Source: an uncultured delta proteobacterium (GTDB lineage: Bacteria > Desulfobacterota > Desulfobulbia > Desulfobulbales > Desulfocapsaceae). From it: DNA of 64,000 nucleotides. A program made the position numbers and the translations under genes. The DNA lies in NCBI GenBank assembly GCA_963796255.1, contig CAWCLE010000010.1:125765-189764 (forward strand). Direction: 5' to 3'. The notes under the pieces were generated by a model, which was given only the letters and a program-made list of their open reading frames with translations, was not told the DNA's origin and did not search any database. Shown here one piece after another: positions 19,527 through 64,000 of the stretch; position 1 is the first letter of the stretch; each line of letters opens with the position of its first letter.

Positions 19527-20912
19527 TCACTTGCCGCTTTCACCCTCCGTTTCTCTCCCCGCCAGGCGGTATAATTTGATCTTGCGCCAGAGAGTTGTCC
19601 GGGGAATCCCAAGAATCTGGGCAGTCACGCCCCTATTGTAGCCTGTCCGCCTGAGCACTTTCATAATATATCTCTGTTCCATTTCGGCAAGCGAAGGAAA
19701 ACCGTCGCCCGCCAGGGTATCGAATTCCAGATGCTGCAGATCCTTGGGCAGATCCTGCGGGCCGATCTCCTCTCTTTCAGTCAGGGCCAGGGCCCGTTCA
19801 ATGATGTTTTCCAGCTCGCGAACATTACCCGGAAAGCTATACTGCAGCAGGATATTGAGTGCCGGCTCCTGAATTCTGGTGACCTGTTTATGAAAGGCCA
19901 GGCTGTATTTCTTGATAAAATGGCGGGTCAGCAGCGGGATATCCTCGCGCCTGGCTGACAGGGACGGGACGGCAATGGACACCACGTTCAGACGAAAAAA
20001 CAAATCTTCGCGAAAGGTGCCTGCCTCCACCTCATGCTTGAGTTCTTTGTTGGTCGCGGTGATAATCCGGATATCGAGATCGATCGATCGGGTACCACCG
20101 ACGCGGAAAATCTGCCGCTCCTGGATGACATGAAGGAGTTTTACCTGCAGGTTGAGCGGCATTTCCCCGATTTCATCGAGAAATACAGTGCCACCGGCGG
20201 CCGATTCGAGCAGTCCTATCTTGGTCGTCACGGCACCGGTGAAAGCCCCTTTTTCATGGCCGAAGAGTTCACTGTTGATAAGCTCATCGGTGAACCCGCC
20301 GCAGTTGAAGGTGACAAAGGGGTGGTTTTTTTTGGGGCTGAGCTGGTGGATCGCCTTGGCCACCAGTGCTTTTCCGGTGCCGCTTGCGCCCTGGATAAGC
20401 ACGTTGCAGTCAACCGGCGCCACCTTGCGAATCAGGGTGAACAGCTCCTGGATTAGCGGGCTGTTGCCGATAATCGAGGCGAGGCCGGAATCCCCCTTCA
20501 GTGCCTCTCTGAGGCGCAGATTTTCCAGCCGCATGGAAATTTTATCCCTGGCGCTCTGGGCCAGCAGACGAATCTCCGCGAGATTGACCGGCTTGGCGAC
20601 ATAGTGATAGGCTCCGTTACGCATGGCCTCGACGGCGGTTTCGACGCTTTTATGCCCGGTGATGATGATCACCTCGGTTTCCGGATGCAGCCCCTTTACC
20701 CTGGACAGTATTTCCAGGCCGTCGAGATCAGGCAGGCGCATGTCTAAAAAGACGATATCAAAGGCTTGCTGCACCATTCGTTCAAGAAAAGAACGGCCCA
20801 TAATGAAGGCCTCGACGGCATAGTCCTCGCGGGACAGGACTTGACTCAGCCGACGGCAGACAATTTCTTCATCATCGACAATCGCAAGGCGTAATTTCAT
20901 CCGATACTCCAT
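19527..20912 (-). CDS. NtrC-family sigma-54-dependent response regulator (REC-AAA+-HTH), cassette A
   Basis: REC domain (LAIVDDEEIV...DIVFLDMRLPDLDG), Walker A GASGTGKA, the GAFTGA loop and an HTH (GVTAQILGIPRTTLWRKIK). Confidence 0.9.
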   Translation of the reverse strand: MEYRMKLRLAIVDDEEIVCRRLSQVLSREDYAVEAFIMGRSFLERMVQQAFDIVFLDMRLPDLDGLEILSRVKGLHPETEVIIITGHKSVETAVEAMRNGAYHYVAKPVNLAEIRLLAQSARDKISMRLENLRLREALKGDSGLASIIGNSPLIQELFTLIRKVAPVDCNVLIQGASGTGKALVAKAIHQLSPKKNHPFVTFNCGGFTDELINSELFGHEKGAFTGAVTTKIGLLESAAGGTVFLDEIGEMPLNLQVKLLHVIQERQIFRVGGTRSIDLDIRIITATNKELKHEVEAGTFREDLFFRLNVVSIAVPSLSARREDIPLLTRHFIKKYSLAFHKQVTRIQEPALNILLQYSFPGNVRELENIIERALALTEREEIGPQDLPKDLQHLEFDTLAGDGFPSLAEMEQRYIMKVLRRTGYNRGVTAQILGIPRTTLWRKIKLYRLAGRETEGESGK

Positions 20913-22420
20913 CCGGCAAAATCATTGATAATCGCCGGCAACAGGACAGAGATCTTCGTTCCCCGGTCAGGCGCGCTGACCACCTCGATTCGGCCGCCAT
21001 GGCGCTTGACTATGGCAAAACTGACCGCCAGACCAAGCCCCGTTCCTTTGCCGACTTCCTTGGTTGAAAAAAACGGTTCGAAGATCTTTTCCTGAATGTC
21101 CGGCGGGATGCCGGCACCATTATCTTCCACGGTAAATTTAATAAAGCCGGCAATATTGGCCAAGCCCGCGTGGATGCCGATTTTTCCGCCGGCAGGTGTC
21201 GCCTGTATCGCATTGACCAGCAAATTGGTCAGGACCTGTTGCAGGTTGCCCAGATTGCCTTTTATCTCCGGCAGATTGTCTGTGCAGGTCGTTTCCAGCT
21301 GCAAGTCGGCCATCTTGAACTGGTTTTTAATGAGATTGACGGTGCTGGACAGGATAAGCGAAGGGGCAAGGTGGGAGAATTTCGGATTTTCCGTGCGGGA
21401 GAAATCGAGGAGATTCTTGACGATGTCCGCAGCGCGTTCCGCCTGGCTTTGAATATCCCCAAGCATTTCCGCGCAATTCTCATCGATGTCCTTACCGTAC
21501 TCTTCACTTAAGGCTTCTGCGGTGAGGGCAATATTATTGATCGGGTTGTTCAACTCATGGGCAATACCGGCAGTAAAAGTGCCTATCGCAGCGATTTTTC
21601 GCGTCTGGATCAGATCTTCCTGGTTTGTTTCCAGTTCTGCAGCCATACGATTGAAGGCCTCGATAAGACAGGAAATCTCCTCGAGGCGGACGCCGTGATA
21701 ATCAATGGGACTGAAATCTCCCCGGCCGACCGAGCGGGTTGTTTCCATCACCACATCAAGAGGGGTGAGCAGGCCTTGAGAGATAATTCGGAAAACCAGC
21801 ACCATCAGACCGAGAAGAATAACCAGCACAAAGAAGGGGATAGTCAGGATTCGGACAATGGTCGCATGGATACGTTTTCGCTTGATCAGGCGAAAATGGT
21901 CGGCGGCATCGGTGAGCGTCTTGCCGAGATTGCGGATTTTTTCCGGCGGGAGACTCTCTCCCACGCTGACGCGATCGATAAACCGGCGATAGTCGACCAG
22001 ATGGCTCTGGAAATTCTGATAGGCCAATCTGCCGTCAAGCAGTGGCAGATCCAGGGCAAGATCGGTAAGTAACACATCAATACGATTGAGATATTCCCTG
22101 CTTTCGGCGAGGCTCTCTTTGTCGGCATAAATCAAATAATTCTTCTCGAACCTGCGTACTTCTAAAATATTGTTCAACAAATCGTCATACCTCTCACTGA
22201 GCTCGAGGCGTGTTTTCAGCGTTGACAGGTTCCAATAAGCTAAAGCGGTCAGGACTCCGATTAAGATAAAGGTCAGGGCAAAAACGACCAGGATCTTGCC
22301 TTTTATTGATCCCAGGTGCAGCCCCTTGCCCTTCAACTGAGACAGTTGCCGAAAATAAAAGGTGGCAGGTTTATCGTTCATCATGCGACTCCGATAGATG
22401 GAATTTCGACAATATTTCAT
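20897..22420 (-). CDS. Sensor histidine kinase (2 TM with extracytoplasmic helical sensor, HAMP, HisKA, HATPase), cassette A
   Basis: H-box AGIAHELNNPINNI, N box LLVNAIQAT, and G boxes DNGAGIP and GTGLGLA. The gene overlaps the downstream RR gene by 16 nt. Confidence 0.85.
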   Translation of the reverse strand: MKYCRNSIYRSRMMNDKPATFYFRQLSQLKGKGLHLGSIKGKILVVFALTFILIGVLTALAYWNLSTLKTRLELSERYDDLLNNILEVRRFEKNYLIYADKESLAESREYLNRIDVLLTDLALDLPLLDGRLAYQNFQSHLVDYRRFIDRVSVGESLPPEKIRNLGKTLTDAADHFRLIKRKRIHATIVRILTIPFFVLVILLGLMVLVFRIISQGLLTPLDVVMETTRSVGRGDFSPIDYHGVRLEEISCLIEAFNRMAAELETNQEDLIQTRKIAAIGTFTAGIAHELNNPINNIALTAEALSEEYGKDIDENCAEMLGDIQSQAERAADIVKNLLDFSRTENPKFSHLAPSLILSSTVNLIKNQFKMADLQLETTCTDNLPEIKGNLGNLQQVLTNLLVNAIQATPAGGKIGIHAGLANIAGFIKFTVEDNGAGIPPDIQEKIFEPFFSTKEVGKGTGLGLAVSFAIVKRHGGRIEVVSAPDRGTKISVLLPAIINDFAGWSIG

Positions 22421-22542: not shown

Positions 22543-22558
22543 TGGCATTCGATTTGCT
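22543..22558 (+). promoter_or_regulatory. Sigma-54 promoter of cassette A
   Basis: TGGCAT-TCGAT-TTGCT is a near-consensus -24/-12 element. It lies 25 nt upstream of the ATG at 22583, and the AAGGAG Shine-Dalgarno sequence sits between them. Confidence 0.75.
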
Positions 22559-22582: not shown

Positions 22583-23002
22583 ATGGAAAAGATACTTGTA
22601 GCAATCGACAGCAGACGCGGCGCATGGGAGGCACTGTCCCATGCATGTTCCCTGGCCGGGAGAATAGATGCCGTTGTCAACGTCCTTCTGGTTTCTCCAC
22701 CCCACAGCACAAGACCCAGCGCTGAGTCCAGGGAAGTGGAAGAGGCAATCAAGAAAAGACTGCTGCTGCTTATCGAGGCGGCCCAGGCCAGGGGGGTAAA
22801 AATACATTATTTCATCACGGAGGGTGGATATGAACAGGAGGTGATAACTTTTATCAACAAGTACAAGATTTCGCTTTTTATATATGAGGCTGATGCCGGC
22901 AAGATTCGCCCCGGCGGGAAGGATCAGGCTTATTCCAGCTCTCTTCCTCACCGGATTTCATGTACGGTGGAAAGAGTTTTTACCAAGAAAAAAACAGCGT
23001 AA
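22583..23002 (+). CDS. Universal-stress-protein-like small alpha/beta protein
   Basis: 139 aa, with KILVAIDSRRGAWEALSHA at the N-terminus. I saw no clear G-2x-G-9x-G(S/T) ATP motif. Confidence 0.6.
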   Translation: MEKILVAIDSRRGAWEALSHACSLAGRIDAVVNVLLVSPPHSTRPSAESREVEEAIKKRLLLLIEAAQARGVKIHYFITEGGYEQEVITFINKYKISLFIYEADAGKIRPGGKDQAYSSSLPHRISCTVERVFTKKKTA

Positions 23003-23018: not shown

Positions 23019-23957
23019 ATGAGTTTTTCAATGAATTTGTATCTTCCCATTGCCGGCAACAGTATCAATTGCGTGGCGATACTGGGCCTCGGTGGAGTTG
23101 TCGGTCTGTTATCCGGCATCTTCGGCGTCGGTGGGGGTTTTCTAATGACCCCTCTACTTATCATGATGGGTATTCCCCCGACGGTGGCGGCCGCTTCCGA
23201 TTCCAATCAAATTGTCGGGGCGTCGACGTCCGGGACGCTGGCCCACTTTCGGATGGGCAATGTCGACATTAAAATGGGTCTGCTTTTACTGGTCGGCGGG
23301 ATAGCCGGCGGCACGGTCGGCGTGCAGATTATCAAAATTCTCCGCCAGCTCGGCAATGCCGATTTCCTGATCAGCGTCACCTACGTCCTTATGCTCGGCT
23401 TTGTCGGGGGATATATGTTTCTTGAAAGCCTGCAGGCCATGCGCAAGGCAAAGCAACCGTCCCCAATCGAGACCGCTCCCCGGAAAGAATCTGCTTACGC
23501 AAAAATGATGCGCAGCCTTCCCTTCCAGATGGATTTCCAGCGTTCCGGCATTCGCATGTCGCTGGTCATGCCTTTGGTGCTCGGCACCATGGTCGGTGTG
23601 CTTGCAGCCATCATGGGGGTTGGCGGCGGCTTCGTCATGGTCCCGGTGATGGTCTATCTGTTGCGTATGCCGATGCATGTGGTGGTTGGAACCAGCCTCT
23701 TTCAGATCCTCTTCACCTGTATCAATGTGACGATAATGCAGGCCTCCCAGAATCATACCGTGGATTTCATTCTTGCCCTGCTGCTGCTGATCGGTTCCGC
23801 CCTCGGGGCCCAGGTCGGGGCAAAGGTCGGCAAGAAACTCGGCGGCGAACAATTGAAAATCGCCCTTGCTTCCCTGGTTCTGGTGGTAATGTTTAAGATG
23901 CTCTATGACCTGCTGGCCAGACCGGATATCTTGCTCAGCTATATGGGAGGACATTGA
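23019..23957 (+). CDS. TauE/SafE (TSUP) family anion permease
   Basis: The preferred ATG is at 23019 (MSFSMNLYLPIAG). The protein has about 8 TM helices and a duplicated motif (GIFGVGGGFLMTPLL and IMGVGGGFVMVPVM). Confidence 0.8.
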   Translation: MSFSMNLYLPIAGNSINCVAILGLGGVVGLLSGIFGVGGGFLMTPLLIMMGIPPTVAAASDSNQIVGASTSGTLAHFRMGNVDIKMGLLLLVGGIAGGTVGVQIIKILRQLGNADFLISVTYVLMLGFVGGYMFLESLQAMRKAKQPSPIETAPRKESAYAKMMRSLPFQMDFQRSGIRMSLVMPLVLGTMVGVLAAIMGVGGGFVMVPVMVYLLRMPMHVVVGTSLFQILFTCINVTIMQASQNHTVDFILALLLLIGSALGAQVGAKVGKKLGGEQLKIALASLVLVVMFKMLYDLLARPDILLSYMGGH

Positions 23958-24737: not shown

Positions 24738-27308
24738 ATGTCTGCTCTCAATAAGGTCATCCAGAAACTGCTCGCTTACCCACGGCGCCGTAAACAGGTA
24801 TTGCCGTTTACGGTGCTTTTTAAAAAGTTCCAGTCCATCCTGGAAAGCAACAACCAGGTCCTTGAGCTGATGGCTGATATGGGCGATAAACTGGGAGGAG
24901 AGTATGTTTTTGACCGGCGGTATATTGAGGATGCGGCAGAAAAGGTCGGCGACCATGTTTTTAAGCTGATTTCCGGCCTCAGCATCCTCACCCAGCGCAA
25001 GAATGTCGAACTTTTTGTGGCTTTTGAGCGTATCCGGCAGGCAATCCAAGGCGAGTTGTCGGGCAACCATTATCTGCCAACCGGCAATCTGGTCCTGCCG
25101 CTTGGGGAACTAAATTCGGAAATGAGTGAGCAGGCGGGCGATAAAATGGCCAAGCTCGGTGATATCAGCAATCGCCTGGGACTCACAACATCTGAAGGTT
25201 TCGTGATAACCACCCAGGCTTTTTTTGAGTTCATGAAGAAAACAGGCCTGCTGGAAAAAGCCACCCAGGCACCACAGTTCCATCAAAAAGGCGACGATGC
25301 AGCCTTTCAACAGCTTGCCGAGACCATGCAGCAAAGTATTCTCGACACGCCGGTGCCGCGGCACCTGAAGGCCCAGATTTCTGCCCAGTTCGATGCTCTT
25401 GCCGAACGGATGCAGCGCCCGCAGTTGACCATGGCCGTTCGAAGCAGCGGCTGGGGCGAAGGAGAAGACACCAGTTTTGCCGGGCAGTACACCACCCTGT
25501 TGAACGTGTCGCCCGATCAGCTTATCGACTGCTACCGGCGGGTCGTCGCCGGTGCCTATTCGTTCAAGGCGTGGAGTTATCGCCTGCACAAGGGCTATCT
25601 GGAGCATGAGACAGCCATGGCCGTCGGTTGCCAGGTGATGGTCGACAGCCGGGTCAGTGGTGTCCTCCACACCTATGCCCCGGATGCGGCTGATGGGGCC
25701 ATGCTGGTCAACGGCATGTGGGGCCTCTGCGCCCCGGTAGTCGAAGGCAGTAGACGAACCGACACGATAATTCTCGATCGGCGCCCGCCTTACGCCGTCC
25801 TCACCGAGACCGTGGCGGCAAAACCGCAGCGGCTGGTCCTTGCCCGGGCTGGCGGCACGGTGTGGGAAGATACCCCGTCTGCGCTGCGCGACATACCCTG
25901 CCTGACCGGCAGCCAGCTAGAGGAACTCGCCCGGACCTCCATGCGCATCGAGCGCTACTATAAGAGACCCCAGGAGATTGAGTGGACGTTTGACGCTCAC
26001 GGCCGCTTACTCATCCTCCAGGCGCGGCCGCTGCGTTTTCGGGAAACGCCGTCCATTCCCAAGGCCCAACTGCTCGAGGCCACCCGCGATGCGGAGATCA
26101 TTCTCTCCGATCGGGGTTTAGTCGCCCAGCGTGGCATCGGCATCGGCAAAATCTTTCGTGTGGACAATGATACCGACCTGAAAAACTTCCCTTACGGCGC
26201 AATTATGCTGGCCAAATATACCTCCCCACGTTATTCGTCGATCATGCACAAGGCGCGGGGAATCATTACCGATGTTGGTTCCCCCACCGGCCATATGGCA
26301 TCCCTGGCCCGGGAATTCAGAGTGCCGACGATTGTCGATACGGAGGTGGCGACGTCTCTTTTGCACACCGGTGATGAAATCACCCTCGATGCCACCCAAA
26401 ACATTGTCTATCGCGGCAGTATCATCGCTCTGGCTCGTTTTGATTTGATTGAAGACGAGGTCTTTGAAGATTTTTATGAATATCGTCTGCTGCGCCGGCT
26501 GCTTAAATTTATCAGCCCTCTACACCTCCTGGATCCGCAAGGTGATAACTTTACCCCGGCCGCCTGTCGCACCTATCATGATATCGCCCGGTATATTCAT
26601 GAAAAAGCGGTTGAAGAGCTTATTAACCTGAGCGAAAAAAAAGAGGCGCAGTTTCTCTCCGCCCCGAAGCGACTGGTGGCCGACCTGCCGCTCGGGCTAA
26701 TGGTTATCGATGCGGGTGCGGGCACCAGTTGCGCACCGGATGCCCGGGTGGTCATGCCGGAGCAGATACTCTCTGTGCCCCTCCGTGATTTTTTAAACGG
26801 CCTCGATGAATCGGGCATGTGGGTGACCACTCCTGTTCCCGTCAATCTAGGCAGTTTCATGGCGAGCCTCACCCGTACTTCCATGGCCGGGCCAAAGGAC
26901 CTCGGCCGCAACCTCGCAGTCGTCCTGGAAAATTATATGAATATAAATATGCGGCTTGGCTATCATTTTACGGTAATAGATGCCTATATTTCAGATACAA
27001 TCAACGACAATTCCATCTATTTCAGGTTTCTCGGCGGGGTAACTGAATTTATCCGCCGCTCACGACGGGCGAAATTTATCGCTCAGGTCCTGGCCCATTT
27101 CGATTTCAGGGTTGAGGTACACGGCGATCTGGTGATCGGCCGGGTGAAAAAAATGTCCCGGCCGCGTATGTCCGAACGTATGCGTATCCTCGGCGGACTT
27201 GTCGGTTACACCCGGCAGCTCGACGCCCAGATGCACTCGGACAAAGATGTAACTCTGCACGCGCAACAGTTCATCGATGCCGTGCATAATGTGATGGGAG
27301 AAAAATAA
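24738..27308 (+). CDS. PEP-synthase-like phosphotransferase P1 (N-helical domain, intact PPDK_N ATP-grasp, phosphohistidine swivel, unassigned C-terminal domain; no TIM barrel)
   Basis: 856 aa. Motifs are AGDKMAKLGDI...EGFVITT, AVRSSGWGEGEDTSFAGQYTTLLNV, PQEIEWTF...LILQARPL, the swivel His in GSPTGHMASLAREFRVPTIV, and the C-terminal MRLGYHFTVIDAY...IYFRFLGG. Confidence 0.8.
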   Translation: MSALNKVIQKLLAYPRRRKQVLPFTVLFKKFQSILESNNQVLELMADMGDKLGGEYVFDRRYIEDAAEKVGDHVFKLISGLSILTQRKNVELFVAFERIRQAIQGELSGNHYLPTGNLVLPLGELNSEMSEQAGDKMAKLGDISNRLGLTTSEGFVITTQAFFEFMKKTGLLEKATQAPQFHQKGDDAAFQQLAETMQQSILDTPVPRHLKAQISAQFDALAERMQRPQLTMAVRSSGWGEGEDTSFAGQYTTLLNVSPDQLIDCYRRVVAGAYSFKAWSYRLHKGYLEHETAMAVGCQVMVDSRVSGVLHTYAPDAADGAMLVNGMWGLCAPVVEGSRRTDTIILDRRPPYAVLTETVAAKPQRLVLARAGGTVWEDTPSALRDIPCLTGSQLEELARTSMRIERYYKRPQEIEWTFDAHGRLLILQARPLRFRETPSIPKAQLLEATRDAEIILSDRGLVAQRGIGIGKIFRVDNDTDLKNFPYGAIMLAKYTSPRYSSIMHKARGIITDVGSPTGHMASLAREFRVPTIVDTEVATSLLHTGDEITLDATQNIVYRGSIIALARFDLIEDEVFEDFYEYRLLRRLLKFISPLHLLDPQGDNFTPAACRTYHDIARYIHEKAVEELINLSEKKEAQFLSAPKRLVADLPLGLMVIDAGAGTSCAPDARVVMPEQILSVPLRDFLNGLDESGMWVTTPVPVNLGSFMASLTRTSMAGPKDLGRNLAVVLENYMNINMRLGYHFTVIDAYISDTINDNSIYFRFLGGVTEFIRRSRRAKFIAQVLAHFDFRVEVHGDLVIGRVKKMSRPRMSERMRILGGLVGYTRQLDAQMHSDKDVTLHAQQFIDAVHNVMGEK

Positions 27309-30367: not shown

Positions 30368-30475
30368 GTCAATCCTGGCCTGGACCTCACTGCATGGCAC
30401 TAGTATAATCATGACCTATCCAATATAGAGCCGCCAATCCATCGATAAATCTCTTACCAATCGTGCAATTGTAAA

Positions 30476-39202: not shown

Positions 39203-39283
39203 GAACTCCCACTCCTATAAAAACGTGATTTTCAAAATTGCGCCGTAAAGGCACACCTCTGTGTGCCCTTCTGAAATTTACAG

Positions 39284-52009: not shown

Positions 52010-52151
52010 CCACTGCTGCAAAATGTAGTTTTCCTTGTAATTTCTAGACAATTCCTGACTTTTTTTAAAAAATCTGGACAAAAACAGCAAAATAAAGATA
52101 CCATATTTAGTAACCGTTATGCTGTCGAAGAAAAATTTAATGAGGATTACT

Positions 52152-53567: not shown

Positions 53568-53961
53568 AAGGAGCTTTCGAATGGCGCTCTGAGTACTCAA
53601 TAAACGCCTCATATTCTGCCTTTATCAAGCCTCTTCTCATTGCTTCCACCTGAGCGCAATATATCTCAATTGCAGGATGATTTGAACGGAGTTCTGCAAG
53701 CTTTTCACGATGGGGCCGGTAGAGCTTTTTATAGGCTTGCAGCCGGTTCCCGAACCAGGTGATACCCAAGGATGACCCAACCAGAGTGCCAATTGCCCAA
53801 TTGTCCAAATTCTTGTAATGATGCGAGCCAAAATAGACAGTAAATACTGCAACACCCACACTGACACATGCCCACGCCAGGAAGAAAGCAAACCAGAGAG
53901 CATATTTTTTCCTGTCACGAAAAATGTCCGGATCAGGGGGCTCTGAAATTTTAATTTTCAT
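53560..53961 (-). CDS. Small two-TM membrane protein, unknown function
   Basis: The ORF spans 53560-54003. I prefer the Met at 53961 (MKIKISEPPD), downstream of AGGAGG. It has two hydrophobic helices. Confidence 0.45.
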   Translation of the reverse strand: MKIKISEPPDPDIFRDRKKYALWFAFFLAWACVSVGVAVFTVYFGSHHYKNLDNWAIGTLVGSSLGITWFGNRLQAYKKLYRPHREKLAELRSNHPAIEIYCAQVEAMRRGLIKAEYEAFIEYSERHSKAPYG

Positions 53962-55513: not shown

Positions 55514-56233
55514 TTATGCTCCTGTTTGAACCCGTGACTTGCTATCCGAACGTTTATCAACAACTGTAGATTCTTCAAACTTTGTCACAACAGGAGCCTT
55601 TGAGCCAACGATCCCAAGAGCAGACCACAAATTATTAACGAGGGTTTTCATCCAATAGCTTTTTTTGTTTGCCGATGCAGTGTGTCTTTCTTCCAGTAAC
55701 TTTTTGTTTGCCTCGCGATTGTCAATCATCTCTCCCGTTCGCGAATCAGTGCAAACGATGTTGAAGACCGGAACAGGTGAACCAAAAGCCGCCTCTTCAA
55801 TTTTTATTCCCTGATCAATAAGAACGAACTCAATTCTCTTTACAATACGGCATAATCTGCTGATTATTTTACTTATTTTTCCTGATTCCTGGACATACTC
55901 AAAGTCCACTCCTCTGACAACTGCTTTCTCCTTAAATTCTATGGCGTTCTGCTCAATTGCTGAGGCAAATTGTTTGTGATACAAGTCGCCGTTGCCAAAA
56001 AGTGGCGAAGTATTTACATAGGTGGCCAGTATCTTGCATTTCATTCGATCAGCTACGTTGACCGCATAGTCCATTACCGGTTCGGCCAGACGACTCCCCC
56101 TGGTCACCAGGAGGATGCAGGACTGTTTGGCCAGACTGCACTGTTGCGAAAAATCGTCGGCGTGGTCGATCTTAGACTTATGCAAAACCGTTAGTGGTGT
56201 AACGTTGCGATGTATTTTCTGATCCATAACCAA
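55514..56233 (-). CDS. Hypothetical protein, possibly a divergent USP/adenine-nucleotide-alpha-hydrolase-like fold
   Basis: 239 aa. CILLVTRGSRLAEPVMDYAVNVA...KILATYV resembles a USP beta-alpha start, but no ATP motif is present. The call is weak. Confidence 0.35.
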   Translation of the reverse strand: MVMDQKIHRNVTPLTVLHKSKIDHADDFSQQCSLAKQSCILLVTRGSRLAEPVMDYAVNVADRMKCKILATYVNTSPLFGNGDLYHKQFASAIEQNAIEFKEKAVVRGVDFEYVQESGKISKIISRLCRIVKRIEFVLIDQGIKIEEAAFGSPVPVFNIVCTDSRTGEMIDNREANKKLLEERHTASANKKSYWMKTLVNNLWSALGIVGSKAPVVTKFEESTVVDKRSDSKSRVQTGA

Positions 56234-56263: not shown

Positions 56264-57598
56264 TCAACCGACGGCATCATTTACGGCTTGCCCCTGTCTT
56301 TCTGTTCGATCCAGAAGCATACCTTTAACCATAGCGGCAGTAATTATAATACCAGCCACTCCCAGAGCCACCATCAATGCCCAGAAACTTACGCCATCGA
56401 GCACAGCAAAGAGTTGCTGCTTCAAGCGAGGAATAAGATCCAGATCAGCGAGATAAATCGGTACTTTTGCCCCCCGCGATACAGCGACAATCAGCATAAC
56501 CGCTGCCATGACCAGCTTAATCGTATAATCTTTGACATAGGTCGTCCCAAGTGCCCCCAATTGTACGCCGATCAGTGATCCCGCCAGAATGAGCAAAGTC
56601 ATGCGAATATCGATAAGACCGGCTATTCCCCACTGGATGGAACCAAAAGCGCCCATGACAAAGGCAACAACCAGCTCGGTAGCACTGGCAACCATGGCCG
56701 ATGCACCAACCACATAAATCATTCCCGGCACGCCGATAAAGCCGCCCACCGCAATAGTTGCTGCCAGCATTCCGGTAAAGAGACCAACGGGAACCGTTAT
56801 CCAGGCAGAGATACGCACTCTCGCCACTTTAAACTCCATCATGGGCCAGAGCTCAATTTTTTGCAGTCTCAAGGCGAGGTTCGATGTTTTGGCCTCGGTT
56901 GCTCCTTTAGTCATCGTTAAAGCATCACGCAGAATGTATCCACCAACAATGGCCAGAACCAGAACGAAGACCACACTCACATACAGATTAGAGCCTGCAT
57001 TGCCCCAATGATTGAGGATCATCTGTTGAATTCTTATACCGATCTCAACCCCAATAATCGCGGTTACCGCCATTACTAAGCCAAGCTTTATATCGACTTG
57101 TCCGTATTTCCAGCGCTTATAGGCGCCGACCATGGCCTTGGGAAACTTATGGCACATATTACTGGCCACCGCCACCGCACCTGGGGCTCCCAGAGACATC
57201 ATCGCCGGAGTAAGAACAAACGCTCCTCCAGAGCCGATGAAGCCAGAAAGCAGACCTCCAATAAGCCCGATGATAAGCAGGGCAATAACCTTGGTGACGG
57301 TCATTTCAAAAAACATCAATGAGATGTCTTTGATCACATTTGGTCCAGCATTGGGATCAAGGCTGACCATAACTTTTTTATCAAGAACTATCTTGTCGAT
57401 GTTCACTTCCGGACCAATATTCAAAATTCTTAAATCATCATGTCCGTCAATTTTTATAGTTACCGTTTTAGCCGTTGGATCAAGCTGGGTAAATACACCT
57501 TTCATCACGTTTTTGGGTGGCGGGCCACCTGCATAGGCACTGTGTACCAGTAGGGTGCCTATCAATACTGTCATTAAAATAGTTAGAAATTTCTTCAT
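56264..57598 (-). CDS. TauE/SafE (TSUP) family permease with a signal peptide and an N-terminal periplasmic domain
   Basis: 444 aa. The signal peptide is MKKFLTILMTVLIGTLLVHSAYA, followed by a soluble segment of about 90 aa. Permease motifs are GFIGSGGAFVLTPAM and IAVGGFIGVPGMIYV. Confidence 0.8.
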   Translation of the reverse strand: MKKFLTILMTVLIGTLLVHSAYAGGPPPKNVMKGVFTQLDPTAKTVTIKIDGHDDLRILNIGPEVNIDKIVLDKKVMVSLDPNAGPNVIKDISLMFFEMTVTKVIALLIIGLIGGLLSGFIGSGGAFVLTPAMMSLGAPGAVAVASNMCHKFPKAMVGAYKRWKYGQVDIKLGLVMAVTAIIGVEIGIRIQQMILNHWGNAGSNLYVSVVFVLVLAIVGGYILRDALTMTKGATEAKTSNLALRLQKIELWPMMEFKVARVRISAWITVPVGLFTGMLAATIAVGGFIGVPGMIYVVGASAMVASATELVVAFVMGAFGSIQWGIAGLIDIRMTLLILAGSLIGVQLGALGTTYVKDYTIKLVMAAVMLIVAVSRGAKVPIYLADLDLIPRLKQQLFAVLDGVSFWALMVALGVAGIIITAAMVKGMLLDRTERQGQAVNDAVG

Positions 57599-58087: not shown

Positions 58088-58103
58088 TGCAATCTTGATG
58101 CCA
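58088..58103 (-). promoter_or_regulatory. Sigma-54 promoter of the cassette C minus-strand operon
   Basis: The minus strand reads TGGCAT-CAAGA-TTGCA, near consensus, about 95 nt upstream of the start at 57992. Confidence 0.7.
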
Positions 58104-58169: not shown

Positions 58170-58184
58170 GTTGCATTATGCAAC
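58170..58184. promoter_or_regulatory. Dyad GTTGCATTATGCAAC, candidate activator site 1
   Basis: The dyad is perfect (TTGCA-N3-TGCAA inside GTTGC/GCAAC). It lies between the two divergent sigma-54 promoters. Confidence 0.5.
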
Positions 58185-58260
58185 AAAATATCGATCTACT
58201 ATCGGATATAGTACAAAATATTAGATAGTTATATTGATAATTTGTGGATTTTTCTCTGGT

Positions 58261-58275
58261 GTTGCATAAAGCAAC
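58261..58275. promoter_or_regulatory. Dyad GTTGCATAAAGCAAC, candidate activator site 2
   Basis: It has the same outer arms GTTGC/GCAAC and lies 91 bp from site 1. Confidence 0.45.
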
Positions 58276-58446
58276 CTGAGTTTATCTTTCAGGACCGGAG
58301 CCGGTAGGGATTCACCACGCTCTTTAAATGGGGAACAACGTATCTATCGTATTGTTATTATGTATTTTATTTTACACTCTTTAAGAAAAATTCTGTCCGA
58401 CATAAACTGATTACCAACTGGACACTACGTTTTACGTTTACGAGAC

Positions 58447-58461
58447 GTTACATTATGCAAC
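58447..58461. promoter_or_regulatory. Dyad GTTACATTATGCAAC, candidate activator site 3
   Basis: It differs from site 1 at one position. It lies 121 bp upstream of the plus-strand -24 element. Confidence 0.45.
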
Positions 58462-58682: not shown

Positions 58683-61376
58683 ATGTGGCCCCACCTCTTT
58701 CGTAATAAAAAGAATCAGCCCGCGAGCGGGGCACAGGAAATTGATATCTGGCGGGTCAAGGCGCTCTTCAATAATTTCCGAAAGATCCTTCAGCTCAACA
58801 CCCTGGTATTTGAGCAGATCTCGGCCATGGACCGCGCTCTCGGTGGAGAATATATCTTCGACCGAAACTTTCTGGAAAACTCGGTCCGTACTATTGCCAG
58901 TCATGTGCACCACGTTACCTACAATCTTAATGCCCTGACCAATAATGGTTATGTACCGCTTTATGACCGGTACCAGGAGATCCGGGTGATTCTCGATGAC
59001 ATCCTTGCCGGCAACACCAAAGCTCTTTCCTGTCCTCCAGTTCTCCCCCTTGATTCCCTCAGTTGGGAACTTGAACCACTTGTAGGCATTGATCTTGTCT
59101 GCCTTGCTGAGCTGCGCCACCATCCTGGAATCAAAGCACGAGACGGCCTGGTAATTACCAGTGACGCTGTTCGGGCCATACTAAAAAAAACAACCTCCAC
59201 AGCTCCATCCGAGACGGAACTTTCCTTCGAGCTGGTAGCAGGGAGTCTCAGCAAGTCTCTGCAGCCAATGCTGACGGAACACCACAGCCCACTGCTGTCC
59301 ATCTCTGCTACCCGTCTTAATGGCCAACCGGATGACCCCCGAGATCTTGGCGAATTTTCACTCAAAGAAGACGACAATGCCAGCTTAGTTGTGTTGGCGG
59401 ATGATGCCCTTCCCCATGAACAGGCAACCGGCAGTCCCAGCCCAAGCTCCCCATCACCGCAAGAAACCATCATAAGAGATACCCAAGAGACCTCCCTTGA
59501 GGAGCTCTTCCTAAAAGGGATTATCCGGATCATCGAGATCGTCGCGGAGCGATGTCACACTCTTTACCCTGACACTGAACCTCATTTTGCGCTCTTTCTT
59601 CGGACCGCGTCCAACGCTCTTGCCCGCGGCACCATCACAACCCGAGCCACCATCAAGACTACCACACCAATGCTGACTGTCACTTCATGGCTGCCCGGTC
59701 ATCGACAGGAAATGGATATCCACCATTTACGACGCATCTTCCCCTTTGATTTCGTCTCTTCGACATTGACTCCAAAACGCCTGGAGCAGACCTTTCCTGA
59801 TGGGCTGCAGGCCACGCACCAAACCCCGCGACACCGACACTTCAGGCGTGGTTCAGCCACCATCCTGCCCCAGGAGATCCAGGCCCTTGCGGAAACAGCC
59901 ATGACCCTGGAAAGAATCATGGGGGTTCCCGTGATCATGCACTGGGAATATCTGGAAAATGAGAAATTCGTGGTTACCCGCCTTTTCCCCTTCCTGGAAA
60001 AACCTGTAGAGCCCACCCTCCTTGAACTCGAACAAGAAAAGGACAACGCCATTGTCCTTGGCAAAGGTGGCCAGGTCATCCAGTCCGGTGTTGCTGCCGG
60101 TACGGTTTTCCATGTAACCCAGGACACCAACCTCAACGATTTCCCTATCGGTGGAGTTGCAGTGGCGCCAATTGCCACCCCGCAGCTTACGCCTATTCTG
60201 CACCGGGCGTCAGCTATACTCACCGAACATGGCAACCCCATCGGCCATCTGGCTACGGTGGCGCGGGAACTCAGTTTACCGGCGCTGTTCGGTGTTCCCG
60301 GAATTCTCGAGCAACTCCCCAACGGCACAGAGGTGACTGTGGATGCGGGGAATTGCTGTGTCTACCAAGGAGTCCTCAACCATCTTCTGCAGCAGGGCAG
60401 CAGTGACAACAGCTTCTCTCCCATAGATCCTGAATATCGGGTGCTCCGCCGGTTGCTGCGATTCATATCTCCGCTCAAACTCGTCAACCCGGATGACCCT
60501 CAATTTTCAGCGCAGAACTGCCGTTCCTTTCATGACATTATTCATTACTGCCATGAAATGGCCGTTGATGAGTTAGCTCATTTCCAGGAACGACGTCCAG
60601 GATTGAGTGGCATTCGCACGACACGGCTCCATCTGCCGGCGCAGATGGATATCAACCTGCTGGATATTGGTGGCGGCCTGCCGGATGGCTCGGTGCACCA
60701 ACCGGGGCCAGAAGACATCCTCTCGGGACCTTTTGCTGTTTTTCTTGATGGCTTACTGCATCCCCAGGCTACAGGCGAGGAGTTGCCGACACTGGGCTTG
60801 CGTGATATCATCTCTGCCATTCCCAGAACATCACGACTCAGCAGCGTATCGCCCGAGATGTCTGGTAATAACCTGGCCATCATCAGCCAGGAATATATGA
60901 ATCTGAGTCTGCGACTGGGCTATCATTTCAGTGTCATTGATGCCCATCTCGCCGGCGACCGGCATCGCAATTACATCTACTTCCGGTTTATCGGCGGTCT
61001 TGCCGACCAAACCAGACGCGCGAGACGAGCTCTCTTTATCAGCGATGTGCTGGGTGCCATGGATTTCAAGGTCTTCTGGAAAGGAGATCTGGTTGTCGGC
61101 CGGATGAAATTTGAAGAAAAGGATGTCCTACGTTCGGCTCTTTTTGTCCTCGGAGCCCTGACTACCTACTCCCGACAACGGGATACCAGCCTCTATAGCG
61201 ATGCGTTGGGCCGAGAACTCTTTGATCGATTTGCCGATACCTTTCTTTTGCCCTTCAGCAAAACATCGGCGACCCACCGCAGCCTGCGCACCGCCGCCGA
61301 ATCAAATGCAGCGGCCAGACTGAAAAAATCGCCAGTCTCCATGTCGGAGGGCCGGCAAATGGGAGAAGAATCATGA
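58683..61376 (+). CDS. PEP-synthase-like protein P4 with a degenerate ATP-grasp (close paralogue of P2)
   Basis: 897 aa. The N-terminus IDIWRVKALFNNFRKILQLN...TIASHVHHVTYNLNALT is nearly identical to P2. Other motifs are PLVGIDLVCLAEL, no VRSS...SFAGQ, HGNPIGHLATVARELSLPALF and LRLGYHFSVIDAH...YIYFRFIGG. Confidence 0.75.
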   Translation: MWPHLFRNKKNQPASGAQEIDIWRVKALFNNFRKILQLNTLVFEQISAMDRALGGEYIFDRNFLENSVRTIASHVHHVTYNLNALTNNGYVPLYDRYQEIRVILDDILAGNTKALSCPPVLPLDSLSWELEPLVGIDLVCLAELRHHPGIKARDGLVITSDAVRAILKKTTSTAPSETELSFELVAGSLSKSLQPMLTEHHSPLLSISATRLNGQPDDPRDLGEFSLKEDDNASLVVLADDALPHEQATGSPSPSSPSPQETIIRDTQETSLEELFLKGIIRIIEIVAERCHTLYPDTEPHFALFLRTASNALARGTITTRATIKTTTPMLTVTSWLPGHRQEMDIHHLRRIFPFDFVSSTLTPKRLEQTFPDGLQATHQTPRHRHFRRGSATILPQEIQALAETAMTLERIMGVPVIMHWEYLENEKFVVTRLFPFLEKPVEPTLLELEQEKDNAIVLGKGGQVIQSGVAAGTVFHVTQDTNLNDFPIGGVAVAPIATPQLTPILHRASAILTEHGNPIGHLATVARELSLPALFGVPGILEQLPNGTEVTVDAGNCCVYQGVLNHLLQQGSSDNSFSPIDPEYRVLRRLLRFISPLKLVNPDDPQFSAQNCRSFHDIIHYCHEMAVDELAHFQERRPGLSGIRTTRLHLPAQMDINLLDIGGGLPDGSVHQPGPEDILSGPFAVFLDGLLHPQATGEELPTLGLRDIISAIPRTSRLSSVSPEMSGNNLAIISQEYMNLSLRLGYHFSVIDAHLAGDRHRNYIYFRFIGGLADQTRRARRALFISDVLGAMDFKVFWKGDLVVGRMKFEEKDVLRSALFVLGALTTYSRQRDTSLYSDALGRELFDRFADTFLLPFSKTSATHRSLRTAAESNAAARLKKSPVSMSEGRQMGEES

Positions 61377-64000
61377 AACTAAGCAATCCTCTCACAAAAG
61401 TCATTGAAGCGTTCCGGAATCATAAAGAAGAGAAGGAGGCATACGCCATCCATAACCTCAAGGCTCGGTACCATGCTTTTCGTATTTTTCTCGAAAATAA
61501 CGGTATTGCCCTGGAAAATATTGCCCAAATTGACACCCTGTTGATTCGGGGAGAGACCGACGAGGTGCGACGGCTGACAACAGAGCTGATCAGCACCACC
61601 GCCGAGCTGGTCGATGGCCTCAACCTCCTGTCAAACGATGCCCATTCTTCTCTCTACCGATTCCATGGTCAACTGGCGGAAAAGGCCCTTGCTCACCTTG
61701 ACCGGCTGCAGGATACAAGGCGTGATGGGTATTGTATTCCGCTTGACACCCTGCGCAGAGACGCAGCAGGAACAGCCGGAACCAAAGCTGCGAACCTGGC
61801 CCGACTGCGACGTCTGACCCTGCCGGTTCCCGATGGATTTGTCTGTACAACTGCAGGAACCAGGCGTTTTCTTGCCATGGAGACACTAGCCGCGGATATC
61901 CGCAGAATGCTCCGAGACATGGACCGAGGGCTGAGTGATCTCAATTTCGCTGCCGACCGTATCACCAGAAAAATTCTTGGTGCTCCACTGCCGGACGACC
62001 TGGCCCGGGACTTGGAAAACAACTACCGCCTCCTTAAGGACAGGATGGAGCAGCATCTGGGAAAATCGTCTTCTCCAGCTATCTCCGTGCGTAGCAGTGG
62101 GATCTCCGAAGATGGGCTGGAACGCTCTTTTGCCGGACAGTATACCTCGATTCTTAATGTCATTGGCAGCCAATCACTCCTGGTGGCCTACAAGGAGGTT
62201 ATAGCCAGCGCTTTCAGTGCCAGAGCCATTTCCTATCGAGTGAATGCGGGTCTGCCTCCTTTGGATATTGACCTCGCCGTTCTCTTCCAGCTTATGGCAG
62301 ATGTCGACTGTGCCGGAGTCCTTTTTACCGTTGACCCCTCGGAACCGGAAAACGGCAGAATGCTGATCAGCTGTGTGCCGGGCCTTGGTACCCAGGCAGT
62401 CGGCGGCTCATCACCGGCGGATCTTTACCGGCCCAGGCGCACGGTCCTGCCCATTGAAACAGAAACGATTACAGACGCGGCAAGGACGAAGACCCTCGAC
62501 ATGAACACTCTCGAAGCGGAGATCATGGACCAGGCTGAGATAGGAGTCAAAACTGTCCGCGAGGTGGCAAAACAAGAGGGCGGCGTCGAACTGGAACAAC
62601 TTTCCGCCGAGGAAGCCAATCAGCCGCTGCTGGAAGTGGCTACCATCTATGATCTGATGCGATATGGGCAACTTCTAGAAAATATCTGGGGCATGGCCCA
62701 GGATATTGAATGGGCATTTTCAAGCACCTCCGGCTTATCGCTTCTCCAGTCAAGACCTCTCAGGCTCGCCTCCAAAGGACGTCGTAATCCATCGCACGAT
62801 ACGGCGAAACGCCTGCTGTCCGGTACCTGTGCTTCCTCCGGCAAGGTCATCGGCTGTGTGCGCATTGCCCTCTCCCTGGCAGATCTTGTCGCTCTCGATA
62901 AAGAGAGGGACAATGAACTGGATCAACAGCCGACCATCCTCGTTCTCTCCCAGAGCATTGTCGATGCCTCCCATCTCTTTGCCCAGTGCAGCGGCGCCGT
63001 AGTCGACATAGGTAATCCGACGGATCATCTCTCCTGTGTGGCAAGAGAACTGGGAATCCCCATGCTCACCGGCACCCGGAACGCCTCCACAACCCTGGTC
63101 AAAAACCAGTGGATCATACTCGATGCAGACGATGGAACAGTACGCGAGGCCCCGGAATCAGTGCGCGAAGCAGCCTATCTGGCCTTTAAAAAACGAAAGG
63201 AGCTCGCCAAGGGTAAGACCACTGATCTGCTCACCAGCCTGCGGGCAGAAACCATCTCTCCTGAGCGGGAGGCCTTACGCAAGTTGATTGTCCCGCTCAA
63301 TTTAACAGATGCCTACGGTTCGACCTTCTCCCTGCTCGAATGTCGTTCCCTGCACGACATTATACGCTATTCCCATGAAATGGCCGTGATGGCCATGTTC
63401 GATACCGGGGACATGGTCATGGATTTTGCGGGCAGCTTGCTGCGCCCCCTTGACATTGGCGTCCCTTTCTCCTTTTTGGTCATCGACCTTGGTGGAGGAC
63501 TGCGTCGGACAGAAGAGAGTTTTCTCAGAAAACAACTGGCCTTCCACAAACCTCTTGGTCGGGAAGATGTCCTCTCCATTCCCCTTGCCGCACTGTGCGA
63601 CGGGCTGATGACTCCTGAGCTGAGCTGGCATTCCAGCCCTGATGGTGAGGCAATGGGCAACATCATGTCCCAGACCATGTTGAGTGGTCGAGGCCCCAGG
63701 CCGGCCGGATCATTTAATTACGCCTTGGCGGCCCGGGACTATCTCAACCTCAACGCCCGTGTTGAATTCCATTTTGCCATGCTGGATGCGATCTGCGGTC
63801 GGGATACCCATGCCAACTATATCCGTTTCCGTTTCAAAGGGGGAGGAGCAGGCCGGGAAAGGGGTCACCGCCGCGCCCTTTTCCTCCAGCACGTACTTGA
63901 GAAAAATGGGTTTTACACCAAAGTGATAGAAGACCTTATTACCGCCACTCTGACGGGGGCATCGAAGGAAATCGTCCATGAACGGCTCATTATGATCGGA
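61373..64000 (+). CDS. PEP-synthase-like phosphotransferase P5 (intact ATP-grasp), 3' end beyond the window
   Basis: This ORF is not in the ORF track because no stop falls inside the window. I translated it from the ATG at 61373, which overlaps the P4 stop (ATGA). Motifs are AGTKAANLARL...DGFVCTT, SVRSSGISEDGLERSFAGQYTSILNV, QDIEWAF...LLQSRPL, GNPTDHLSCVARELGIPMLT and ARVEFHFAMLDAI...YIRFRFKGG. The reading frame reaches position 64000 exactly. Confidence 0.8.
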   Translation, partial: MKLSNPLTKVIEAFRNHKEEKEAYAIHNLKARYHAFRIFLENNGIALENIAQIDTLLIRGETDEVRRLTTELISTTAELVDGLNLLSNDAHSSLYRFHGQLAEKALAHLDRLQDTRRDGYCIPLDTLRRDAAGTAGTKAANLARLRRLTLPVPDGFVCTTAGTRRFLAMETLAADIRRMLRDMDRGLSDLNFAADRITRKILGAPLPDDLARDLENNYRLLKDRMEQHLGKSSSPAISVRSSGISEDGLERSFAGQYTSILNVIGSQSLLVAYKEVIASAFSARAISYRVNAGLPPLDIDLAVLFQLMADVDCAGVLFTVDPSEPENGRMLISCVPGLGTQAVGGSSPADLYRPRRTVLPIETETITDAARTKTLDMNTLEAEIMDQAEIGVKTVREVAKQEGGVELEQLSAEEANQPLLEVATIYDLMRYGQLLENIWGMAQDIEWAFSSTSGLSLLQSRPLRLASKGRRNPSHDTAKRLLSGTCASSGKVIGCVRIALSLADLVALDKERDNELDQQPTILVLSQSIVDASHLFAQCSGAVVDIGNPTDHLSCVARELGIPMLTGTRNASTTLVKNQWIILDADDGTVREAPESVREAAYLAFKKRKELAKGKTTDLLTSLRAETISPEREALRKLIVPLNLTDAYGSTFSLLECRSLHDIIRYSHEMAVMAMFDTGDMVMDFAGSLLRPLDIGVPFSFLVIDLGGGLRRTEESFLRKQLAFHKPLGREDVLSIPLAALCDGLMTPELSWHSSPDGEAMGNIMSQTMLSGRGPRPAGSFNYALAARDYLNLNARVEFHFAMLDAICGRDTHANYIRFRFKGGGAGRERGHRRALFLQHVLEKNGFYTKVIEDLITATLTGASKEIVHERLIMIG

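Follow-up and report, generated by a model that had tools for sequence, protein, structure and literature searches.

A module family with a wide distribution in Desulfobacterota is represented three times within a single stretch of 64,000 nucleotides (hereafter the window) from an uncultured delta proteobacterium of the Desulfocapsaceae (assembly GCA_963796255.1, contig CAWCLE010000010.1, positions 125,765-189,764 of the forward strand). The core of the module is a permease of the TSUP/TauE family with a small membrane partner, at least one enzyme of a type that we call P, a stand-alone receiver and a phosphatase. Judged from their sequences, these P proteins are dikinase-like and carry a novel domain on the acceptor side, in place of the domain with which phosphoenolpyruvate (PEP) synthase ends. 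We propose that the module is a receiver- and phosphatase-governed dikinase switch that controls a sulfur-oxyanion permease, with control by NtrC-type regulators and sigma-54 layered on top in this genome, and we give this proposal an even chance of being right.

Genes were mapped from an open reading frame (ORF) listing and from Pfam and NCBIfam scans of the window proteins. All genes named in an earlier reading of this DNA from its letters (the sequence-only reading) were found where that reading had put them and with the Pfam families it had given them. In cassette A, a response regulator (RR_A) and a histidine kinase (HK_A) occupy the minus strand, and the plus strand carries genes for a universal stress protein (USP_A), the permease TauE_A, the membrane protein TM_A, P1, the receiver REC_A and P2; the gaps between these plus-strand genes are 1-54 nt, or the genes overlap, so that they form a tight operon. 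Cassette B combines RR_B and HK_B on the minus strand with TauE_B, TM_B, P3 and an OmpA-like gene on the plus strand. The minus strand of cassette C holds TM_C, TauE_C, a 239-aa protein, a tandem universal stress protein, two small ORFs and a PPP-type metallophosphatase, down to which (52827-53612) the cassette probably reaches; its plus strand holds P4 and P5, the latter running past the window end. The sequence-only reading saw the same parts list three times over, which holds for the TauE and P proteins and fails for the small membrane proteins, since TM_A, TM_B and TM_C are not homologous to one another. Pairwise identity is 27-31% among the three TauE permeases and 49% between RR_A and RR_B, and the two kinases are paralogues, as that reading had proposed (30% identity). 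In their TauE, P, kinase and regulator parts the modules are paralogous, and they are conserved across orders. Comparisons with the closest relative refer to a metagenome-assembled genome whose contig CAVPXN010000007.1 shows 89.5% nucleotide identity to the window.

The argument turns on the five P proteins, which are encoded as follows.

24738-27308, plus strand: P1, in which a helical N-terminal region (~120 aa) is followed by an intact ATP-grasp domain (PPDK_N), the swivel histidine His519 and a ~290-aa C-terminal domain (C-domain)
27767-30367, plus strand: P2, with a degenerate ATP-grasp domain (VGIDLVCLA; no RSS or FAGQY), the swivel histidine and C-domain being kept
49547-52009, plus strand: P3, with intact ATP-grasp domain, swivel histidine and C-domain; alternative start at 49586
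58683-61376, plus strand: P4, predicted to be dead at the ATP site, with swivel histidine and C-domain intact
61373-64000, plus strand: P5, with intact ATP-grasp domain; cut by the window end, ~919 aa in the closest relative; its start overlaps the P4 stop codon (ATGA)

P1, P3 and P5, which share 27-30% identity with one another, match PF01326 (PPDK_N) with 219-241 bits and keep the ATP-grasp motifs AGxKAAxL and VRSS..ED..SFAGQY..LNV intact. All five proteins match PF00391 (PEP-utilizers, the swivel phospho-histidine domain) with 48-69 bits, and the swivel histidine (H519 in P1) is invariant from P1 to P5. An ATP-grasp domain (PF01326) followed by a swivel histidine domain (PF00391) is also the arrangement of PEP synthase and pyruvate phosphate dikinase (PPDK; EC 2.7.9.2 and 2.7.9.1). 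Those enzymes, however, carry a TIM barrel at the C-terminus, where the P proteins have an unrelated alpha/beta domain of ~290 aa, and the P proteins differ further in the extra ~120-aa helical region at the N-terminus and, in P2 and P4, in the loss of the ATP-site residues. The PEP/pyruvate TIM barrel family PF02896 has no match in the P proteins, and PEP synthase models align with them only at positions 1-465 of 798, so that the barrel is absent. Relatives in the Protein Data Bank (PDB), namely PEP synthase, rifampicin phosphotransferase and Enzyme I, cover the first two P domains only, and the C-domain stands where the barrel would be. The highest NCBIfam equivalog score of any P protein, obtained with NF005057, is 286.7 bits where 598 are required, and with the other models the P proteins stay far below the cut-offs.

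These observations dispose of the view that the P proteins are ordinary PEP synthase or PPDK paralogues serving gluconeogenesis that happen to lie near transporters. It is the view conveyed by the database names ('pyruvate, water dikinase' and 'PEP/pyruvate-binding domain-containing protein') and by one proteomic study (PMC13490349), and we leave it next to no probability: the PEP/pyruvate barrel is missing, scores do not reach half of the equivalog cut-offs, no solved structure is related to the C-domain, and synteny with TauE and receiver genes is near-universal. The sequence-only reading, too, had set the P proteins apart from PEP synthase and PPDK, which their domain content, scores and C-domain bear out; its description of them as ATP-to-histidine phosphotransferases without a TIM barrel fits P1, P3 and P5 and does not extend to P2 and P4, in which the ATP site appears to be dead.

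The C-domain itself is without recognisable kin. No match to PDB sequences was obtained with a single sequence or with a 16-sequence profile, and relaxed Pfam scans returned no match for the C-domain (E <= 10) or the N-terminal region. The AlphaFold model of the C-domain is alpha/beta, with a mean confidence (pLDDT) of 77.8, and comparison of the model with PDB folds gave no match, the best having E = 0.02 and a template-modelling (TM) score < 0.25. Fold matches to RecJ/DHH, AlaRS C-Ala and DesK were discarded as noise (TM score < 0.25), and the idea of an HD phosphohydrolase, raised by a CxxxHD...HE motif in the C-domain, was dropped on account of a beta-rich model and no matches to HD families. 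Among 1.84 billion representative proteins the C-domain is found in 1133 clusters at 50% identity, and in nearly all of them it lies at residues ~560-850 of proteins of 800-900 aa; the domain therefore occurs almost only in the P-type architecture. Nine residues are invariant across the family (C610, H614, D615, H621, H743, F764, G766, G767 and R777 in P1 numbering).

The polar cluster among these residues (Cys, three His, Asp and Arg) would suit a catalytic or substrate pocket, and this favours a metabolic explanation of the module, in which the permease would serve to take up a small substrate or to export a small product, and P would use ATP to phosphorylate that molecule or a downstream metabolite. 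The phosphatase would then serve salvage or proof-reading and the two-component genes would do nothing but regulate, in keeping with PEP synthase, phenylphosphate synthase, rifampicin phosphotransferase and PigC/RedH. Precedent points the same way: to our knowledge, every characterised member of the superfamily that joins ATP-grasp and swivel histidine domains, outside the PEP-dependent phosphotransferase system (PTS), acts on a small molecule or a glycan. So do the partial NCBIfam matches of the P proteins, which are to PEP synthase, rifampicin phosphotransferase and PigC/RedH. The last two (PRK06241-type) apply the same ATP-grasp and swivel histidine chemistry to a substrate other than pyruvate; their domains, however, run in the order ATP-grasp, substrate domain, histidine domain, whereas those of P run ATP-grasp, histidine domain, C-domain, and the C-domain shares neither sequence nor fold similarity with their substrate domains. 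We regard the metabolic explanation as rather unlikely, though a serious contender, for reasons that lie mostly in the company that the P genes keep.

One of these reasons is the existence of P2 and P4. The two are 50% identical over their full length and have no match to PPDK_N (PF01326); the Lys of GxKxxxL is replaced in both, and the RSS and FAGQY motifs are absent. In 30 orthologues of the P2/P4 type, GxKxxxL is found in 0/30, FAGQ in 0/30 and RSS in 1/30, with the swivel histidine present in 25/30 and FRFxGG in 28/30. By these residues, P2 and P4 are to be regarded as ATP-site-dead. Unable to bind ATP, they would probably be phosphorylated in trans by an active partner, or would regulate that partner, the candidates being P5 for P4 and P1 for P2. 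Conserved ATP-site-dead paralogues are more typical of regulatory pseudoenzymes than of a metabolic pathway. Synteny with the closest relative stops right after P2 (window 30349-31100; 13909-16725 in its locus, L007): the closest relative keeps a third gene there, of the P5 type, and other relatives also carry a PPP phosphatase gene, while the window continues with an 88-aa ORF and then a TetR/HlyD/ABC-2 exporter. Cassette A has apparently lost the ATP-competent partner of P2.

The permeases, their membrane partners and the other non-regulatory genes of the cassettes are these.

22583-23002, plus strand: USP_A, universal stress protein, first gene of operon A; Pfam Usp 38.6 bits; position conserved
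23019-23957, plus strand: TauE_A, TSUP/TauE permease, 312 aa from the start used by orthologues; Pfam 167 bits
23959-24723, plus strand: TM_A, a PF09608 (Alph_Pro_TM / TIGR02186-like) protein; Pfam 141.7 bits
27308-27712, plus strand: REC_A, stand-alone receiver with DD, D61, T and K as in canonical receivers; the gene overlaps the stop codon of P1
47758-48921, plus strand: TauE_B, TSUP permease with a signal-peptide-like N-terminal extension; Pfam 90 bits
48976-49539, plus strand: TM_B, 187-aa membrane protein with no Pfam family
52119-52763, plus strand: OmpA-like lipoprotein (Pfam), 3' of P3; conserved in close relatives only
52827-53612, minus strand: PPP-family metallophosphatase (GDIHG, GDYINRG, GNHE), PrpA/B- or ApaH-like
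54486-55361, minus strand: USP_C, tandem universal stress protein; Pfam 160 bits in two stretches
55514-56233, minus strand: 239-aa protein with a weak Usp match, below cut-off
56264-57598, minus strand: TauE_C, TSUP permease with a signal peptide and an extracytoplasmic N-terminal domain of ~80 aa; Pfam 126 bits
57648-57992, minus strand: TM_C, membrane protein of 114 aa, encoded first in the minus-strand operon; kept in the closest relative

That all three TauE proteins are TauE/SafE permeases, as the sequence-only reading held, is clear from their PF01925 scores (167, 90 and 126 bits against a cut-off of 32.6) and from at least eight hydrophobic segments in each. TauE_A is the most conserved gene of its module, at 62-99% identity across loci. 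TauE_B probably starts at 47770, and its counterpart in the closest relative has 383 aa; TM_B is the regular partner of TauE_B-type permeases, and pairs of the two recur in many loci. In TM_A a signal peptide precedes two periplasmic domains of the beta-sandwich type and a C-terminal transmembrane helix; homologues have ~256 aa. The 141.7 bits of TM_A clear the PF09608 cut-off of 24.5, but against NCBIfam TIGR02186 it reaches 64.9 bits where the cut-off is 255, which marks it as a divergent Desulfobacterota branch of the family. The AlphaFold2 model of TM_A (pLDDT 81.7) matches generic Ig- or arrestin-like beta-sandwiches that offer no functional lead, and a literature search for TIGR02186, PF09608 and Alph_Pro_TM found no paper. 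Of the two universal stress proteins first seen in cassette C, the one at 54486-55361 stands, and that at 55514-56233 is doubtful, its Usp match (E = 0.003, 18 bits) being weak and below threshold. The PPP phosphatase gene is convergent to the P3-OmpA genes and comes last among the minus-strand genes of cassette C.

Conservation of gene neighbourhoods was assessed in two surveys. P1-type loci came from a C-domain scan of species-representative genomes, which returned at least 595 loci, the best 80 being annotated against the window proteins; P3-type loci came from a metagenome scan with P3 orthologues. Co-localisation proved to be conserved, P1-type modules keeping their genes together in 64/65 loci and P3-type modules being widespread. 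TauE_A and TM_A accompany P1 in 64/65 loci with enough flanking sequence, and a receiver gene directly follows P1 in at least 65/73. The same P1-type order recurs in Desulfovibrio subterraneus, Halodesulfovibrio aestuarii, Syntrophobacter sp. SbD1 and Desulfopila sp. IMCC35006: regulator and kinase genes pointing one way, then universal stress protein, TauE, Alph_Pro_TM, P1-type, receiver, P2-type and P5-type genes pointing the other, and finally an opposed metallophosphatase gene. This layout, with divergent regulator and kinase genes and with P2-type, P5-type and PPP phosphatase genes, is found in Desulfovibrionales, Desulfobulbales and Syntrophobacterales; a second, co-directional layout (kinase, regulator, universal stress protein, TauE, membrane partner, P1, receiver) occurs in Desulfobacterales and other orders. 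The pair of P2-type and P5-type genes is present in 24/50 loci, and 21/24 of these have the PPP phosphatase.

P3-type modules follow a canonical order of their own, namely TauE_B, TM_B, a binding protein in some, histidine kinase, receiver, P3 and then a ~350-aa protein with a dual-specificity phosphatase (DSP) of the CX5R kind, an annotated example being Pseudodesulfovibrio sp. zrk46. The receiver lies directly 5' of P3 in 46/58 loci, the DSP gene directly 3' in 34/47, and TauE_B and TM_B within 7 kb in 25/51. P3 of the window is 48% identical to a Pseudodesulfovibrio protein that stands in this canonical order, the closest relative has the same arrangement of cassettes B and C, and a tblastn search for a DSP homologue in the window found none. 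The type of phosphatase thus alternates, PPP beside P2/P5-type pairs and DSP beside P3-type genes. The sequence-only reading had seen permease, membrane proteins and P enzymes together, and had left out the stand-alone receiver and the PPP or DSP phosphatase as regular members. As a separate observation, the DSP partners (loci L092-L151) share a conserved Cys-rich C-terminal half (CG.DH..CC ... CPL..G.C.LF..RP..CR), which suggests a metal- or Fe-S-binding domain fused to the phosphatase.

This company, too, speaks against a metabolic role. No other metabolic enzyme that might use a phosphorylated product is present in the examined clusters, both companion phosphatases come from protein-phosphatase families (PPP and DSP), and in both subfamilies P and the stand-alone receiver show translational coupling. 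The phosphatases also invite comparison with plant glucan, water dikinase (GWD) and the dual-specificity phosphatases SEX4, LSF2 and laforin. By analogy, P might phosphorylate a polysaccharide or a component of the envelope, and DSP or PPP remove the phosphate; the dikinase and DSP pairing in 34/47 loci mirrors GWD and SEX4, and OmpA-domain proteins adjoin P3 in the window and in Desulforapulum autotrophicum. Such a polymer cycle is very improbable, as no cluster has a carbohydrate-binding module or glycan enzyme, the domain order is unlike that of GWD, the OmpA neighbour is not kept beyond close relatives, and the published phenotype discussed below is specific to an anion (nitrate).

The receiver, in turn, suggests an ATP-driven phosphorelay in which the phosphorylated swivel histidine of P donates to the Asp of the adjacent receiver, much as Enzyme I donates to HPr, the C-domain being the docking site; P would then be an unorthodox kinase of the receiver. 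Receiver and P genes adjoin, often with overlap, in both subfamilies, REC_A keeps all canonical phospho-acceptor residues, and the swivel domain is homologous to the histidine domain of Enzyme I. Yet nearly every module has a conventional histidine kinase, the obvious donor for the receiver; cassettes B and C carry P genes without a stand-alone receiver; and transfer from a swivel histidine to Asp would be without precedent, as we know of no case of it. We therefore hold the relay to be improbable, if less so than the polymer cycle. Enzyme I of the PTS is of more use as a precedent for the reading in which P is directed at a protein, because its homologous swivel histidine domain does pass phosphate to a protein acceptor; it differs from P in drawing that phosphate from PEP through a TIM barrel and in having neither an ATP-grasp domain nor a P-type C-domain.

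The sequence-only reading knew of no characterised system of this composition, but one exists. The 'nitrate cluster' of Korte et al. 2014 (DVU0251-DVU0245 / Dde_0597-Dde_0605; PMC4001038) comprises a TauE-like permease, a conserved hypothetical protein, a PtxB-like binding protein, a PAS/HAMP histidine kinase, a receiver-only regulator, a 'pyruvate phosphate dikinase' (ATP-grasp plus PEP-utilizing mobile domain) and a Tyr/dual-specificity phosphatase. Gene for gene, in content and order, this is the canonical P3-type module, so that the composition was already known and had been defined genetically, with published mutant phenotypes. In Desulfovibrio alaskensis G20, transposon mutants of each of these genes gained fitness in 150 mM nitrate and showed no gain in nitrite or chloride, and TauE, receiver and PPDK-like mutants of Desulfovibrio vulgaris Hildenborough (DvH) behaved in nitrate as those of G20 did (PMC4001038). 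The authors called the cluster poorly annotated and proposed a leaky thiosulfate transporter, mentioning a mild growth defect on thiosulfate as unpublished data (PMC4001038); Carlson et al. 2021 repeat the thiosulfate-transporter reading (PMC9723548). The 'exporter' of the sequence-only reading was accordingly an assumption: published genetics point to uptake, with thiosulfate the suspected native substrate and nitrate a fortuitous one. What the work of Korte et al. supplies is a phenotype and a transport hypothesis; the missing TIM barrel and the novel C-domain are not noted there. Cassette B shares TauE_B, TM_B and P3 with the nitrate-cluster lineage and differs in lacking the PtxB-like binding protein, the stand-alone receiver and the DSP phosphatase, in place of which it has a divergent NtrC-type pair with a sigma-54 promoter, and the OmpA-like gene. 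Cassettes A and C represent different subfamilies, characterised by the TIGR02186-like partner, universal stress proteins, P2 and P4 with their apparently dead ATP sites, and the PPP phosphatase.

Proteomics adds a second line of evidence. In Dissulfuribacter thermophilus the adjacent gene products DITHS69_1988, 1989 and 1990 were more abundant during thiosulfate disproportionation, and the authors of that 2026 study read DITHS69_1988 as gluconeogenic (PMC13490349). If the tag is right, the protein concerned (A0A1B9F8F1) adjoins a TauE/partner pair and is probably of the P1 type and not gluconeogenic. The rise of module proteins with a change of sulfur substrate would suit the metabolic explanation as well (PMC13490349).

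From these pieces a mechanism can be assembled. A membrane kinase would sense an extracytoplasmic signal through its helical domain, as its architecture suggests, and in cassettes A and B would drive the NtrC-type activator, which would open the sigma-54 promoter. By homology with dikinases of the PEP synthase family, P would phosphorylate itself on the swivel histidine (His519 in P1) by means of its ATP-grasp domain, and from there the histidine domain would pass the phosphoryl group on to an acceptor bound at the C-terminal domain, in which Cys, His, Asp and Arg residues are invariant. Synteny and the published genetics suggest that this phosphorylation, which the receiver would gate and the phosphatase undo, may be the switch that the permease needs in order to work. 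As the nitrate-cluster module has no DNA-binding output and its signalling genes share the permease phenotype, P, receiver and phosphatase most likely act post-translationally on the permease, which itself most likely carries a sulfur oxyanion such as thiosulfate, nitrate entering as a fortuitous substrate. The sulfur-oxyanion assignment draws on the family name, the unpublished thiosulfate phenotype and one proteomic data set. A bolder form of the proposal would make the P family a new class of signalling enzyme: a swivel dikinase for ATP and histidine, derived from PEP synthase, whose C-domain phosphorylates a protein (the TSUP permease complex or a partner), gated by the receiver, reset by PPP or DSP, and with P2 and P4 as subunits phosphorylated in trans. 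We advance it tentatively and consider the chances to be somewhat against it.

Several points weigh against the proposed switch. The domain logic of the enzyme superfamily would accommodate a small-molecule substrate just as well. The published nitrate phenotypes concern the P3-type module of Desulfovibrio, and P3 is linked to DVU0246 and Dde_0604 of the nitrate cluster through a gene list and order that match those in Pseudodesulfovibrio. The G20 mutant of the DSP gene has the same sign as mutants on the kinase side, and that of DvH has the opposite sign, as does DVU0250 (PMC4001038), so that a simple antagonism of kinase and phosphatase is not cleanly supported; polar effects could lie behind part of the shared mutant phenotype. 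DITHS69_1988 is almost certainly a P1-type gene, by position and adjacency only, and the 'PEP synthase' A0A1B9F8F1 is DITHS69_1988 in Table 2 of that study and DITHS69_1161 in its text (PMC13490349). Within the window, cassette A is without the third (P5-type) gene and the phosphatase of its closest relatives, cassette B is without stand-alone receiver and DSP genes, and cassette C has no cognate regulator or enhancer-binding protein of its own.

The layer of transcriptional control is encoded by the following genes and sites, together with a protease gene that adjoins RR_B.

19527-20912, minus strand: RR_A, NtrC-type enhancer-binding response regulator (receiver, Sigma54_activat, HTH_8, GAFTGA)
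20897-22420, minus strand: HK_A, histidine kinase with HAMP, HisKA and HATPase domains and two transmembrane helices around a ~130-aa helical extracytoplasmic domain
22543-22557, plus strand: predicted sigma-54 -24/-12 element TGGCATTCGATTTGC, ~26 nt 5' of the USP_A start codon
42191-44242, plus strand: REC-AAA-Lon protease (Pfam), adjoining RR_B
44244-45605, minus strand: RR_B, NtrC-type enhancer-binding response regulator, GAFTGA present
45655-47121, minus strand: HK_B, paralogue of HK_A with the same architecture
47589-47603, plus strand: predicted sigma-54 -24/-12 element TGGCATAGAGGTTGC, 5' of TauE_B
58089-58103, minus strand: predicted sigma-54 -24/-12 element TGGCATCAAGATTGC, its GG and GC elements kept in the closest relative
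58170-58461: three palindromes GTTGCATTATGCAAC, GTTGCATAAAGCAAC and GTTACATTATGCAAC of the form GTTGCAT-N3-(A)TGCAAC, kept in the closest relative

The kinase motifs quoted in the sequence-only reading are indeed present, the sensor motif as EVRRFEKNYLIY / EVRRYEKNFFLY and the H-boxes as AGIAHELNNPINNI / AGIAHQLNNPLNNI. An orthologue of RR_A adjoins the module in most P1-type loci. Promoters were sought as TGGCAC-N5-TTGC with one mismatch allowed on both strands (128 kb), which gave six matches in the window against ~5.4 expected by chance. Three of the six are TGGCAT-N5-TTGC, one in each divergent intergenic region and each aimed at its operon, and these three regions make up ~1.5 kb of the 128 kb scanned. 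At loci orthologous to cassette A, a strict -24/-12 motif stands 5' of the first operon gene in 38/68. The elements at 22543 (plus), 47589 (plus) and 58089 (minus) hence sit and point as the sequence-only reading had them, the first recurs in orthologous loci, and predicted sigma-54 control is well supported for the three operons. A fourth promoter, on the plus strand before P4 and P5, fared otherwise: the candidate at 58582 is a poor match (TGGGCT-N5-TTGC) and is not kept in the closest relative, and it was rejected. The palindromes of cassette C are kept in the closest relative while their flanks vary, and they are candidate enhancer sites for an activator encoded outside the cassette.

Regulation of TSUP operons by sigma-54 is already on record for D. 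vulgaris (PMC4641369), and to that extent, too, the system is less unprecedented than the sequence-only reading supposed. In DvH, nine sigma-54-dependent operons encode TSUP or PSE transporters with no substrate assigned (Kazakov et al. 2015, PMC4641369), and two of its loci, DVU0132-0133 and DVU2957-2964, combine TSUP permeases, sigma-54 promoters and a co-localised divergent enhancer-binding protein as the window does (PMC4641369). No PEP synthase-like protein is mentioned for these operons in PMC4641369, and their likeness to the window is one of gene content and promoter type. The NtrC/sigma-54 layer would appear to have been added to cassettes A and B in this genome. Homologues of the REC-AAA-Lon protease (28-69% identity) flank P-type modules in the unrelated loci L014, L019, L033, L042, L062 and L087; it may be a proteolytic arm of the module's signalling system, its membership being only putative.

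Other genes of the window may be noted in passing. The region 1953-11247 appears to be another sigma-54-linked paralogue array: after the gene for a GAF-PAS sigma-54 activator (1953-3911) come a tandem run of four DUF1254/DUF1214 paralogues (4322-10144) and the gene for a MetA-like outer-membrane channel (10270-11247). Just 5' of cassette A, an overlapping gene pair encodes a DUF2868 protein and a DUF3482 GTPase (15606-18751); next to it is a PRiA4_ORF3-like gene (18744-19499) whose synteny extends to Desulfopila and the closest relative. Cassettes A and B are separated by a spacer (38561-42064) with genes for a pyridoxamine-phosphate oxidase, a Tim44-like protein and a B12-binding radical SAM protein, of which the second and third, together with the REC-Lon gene, show synteny with the closest relative.

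Few transporters of sulfate-reducing bacteria are as abundant, and few as poorly understood, as the TSUP permeases, and nitrate dosing is used against souring and corrosion. Loss of the nitrate-cluster module leads to nitrate resistance, and the nitrate cluster is one branch of a much larger family, in which we count no fewer than 595 genomic loci and, at 50% identity, 1133 clusters of proteins. What is new here is the breadth of that family, its misannotated C-domain, its conserved pseudo-dikinases, the alternation of PPP and DSP phosphatases and the wiring to sigma-54 and NtrC-type regulators. The 'PEP synthase' of these clusters is misannotated, which warns against a gluconeogenic reading in omics studies such as was made for DITHS69_1988. 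If the proposed switch is true, it would be a previously unrecognised post-translational control on sulfur-oxyanion transport in sulfate reducers, and would explain their nitrate resistance on loss of the module.

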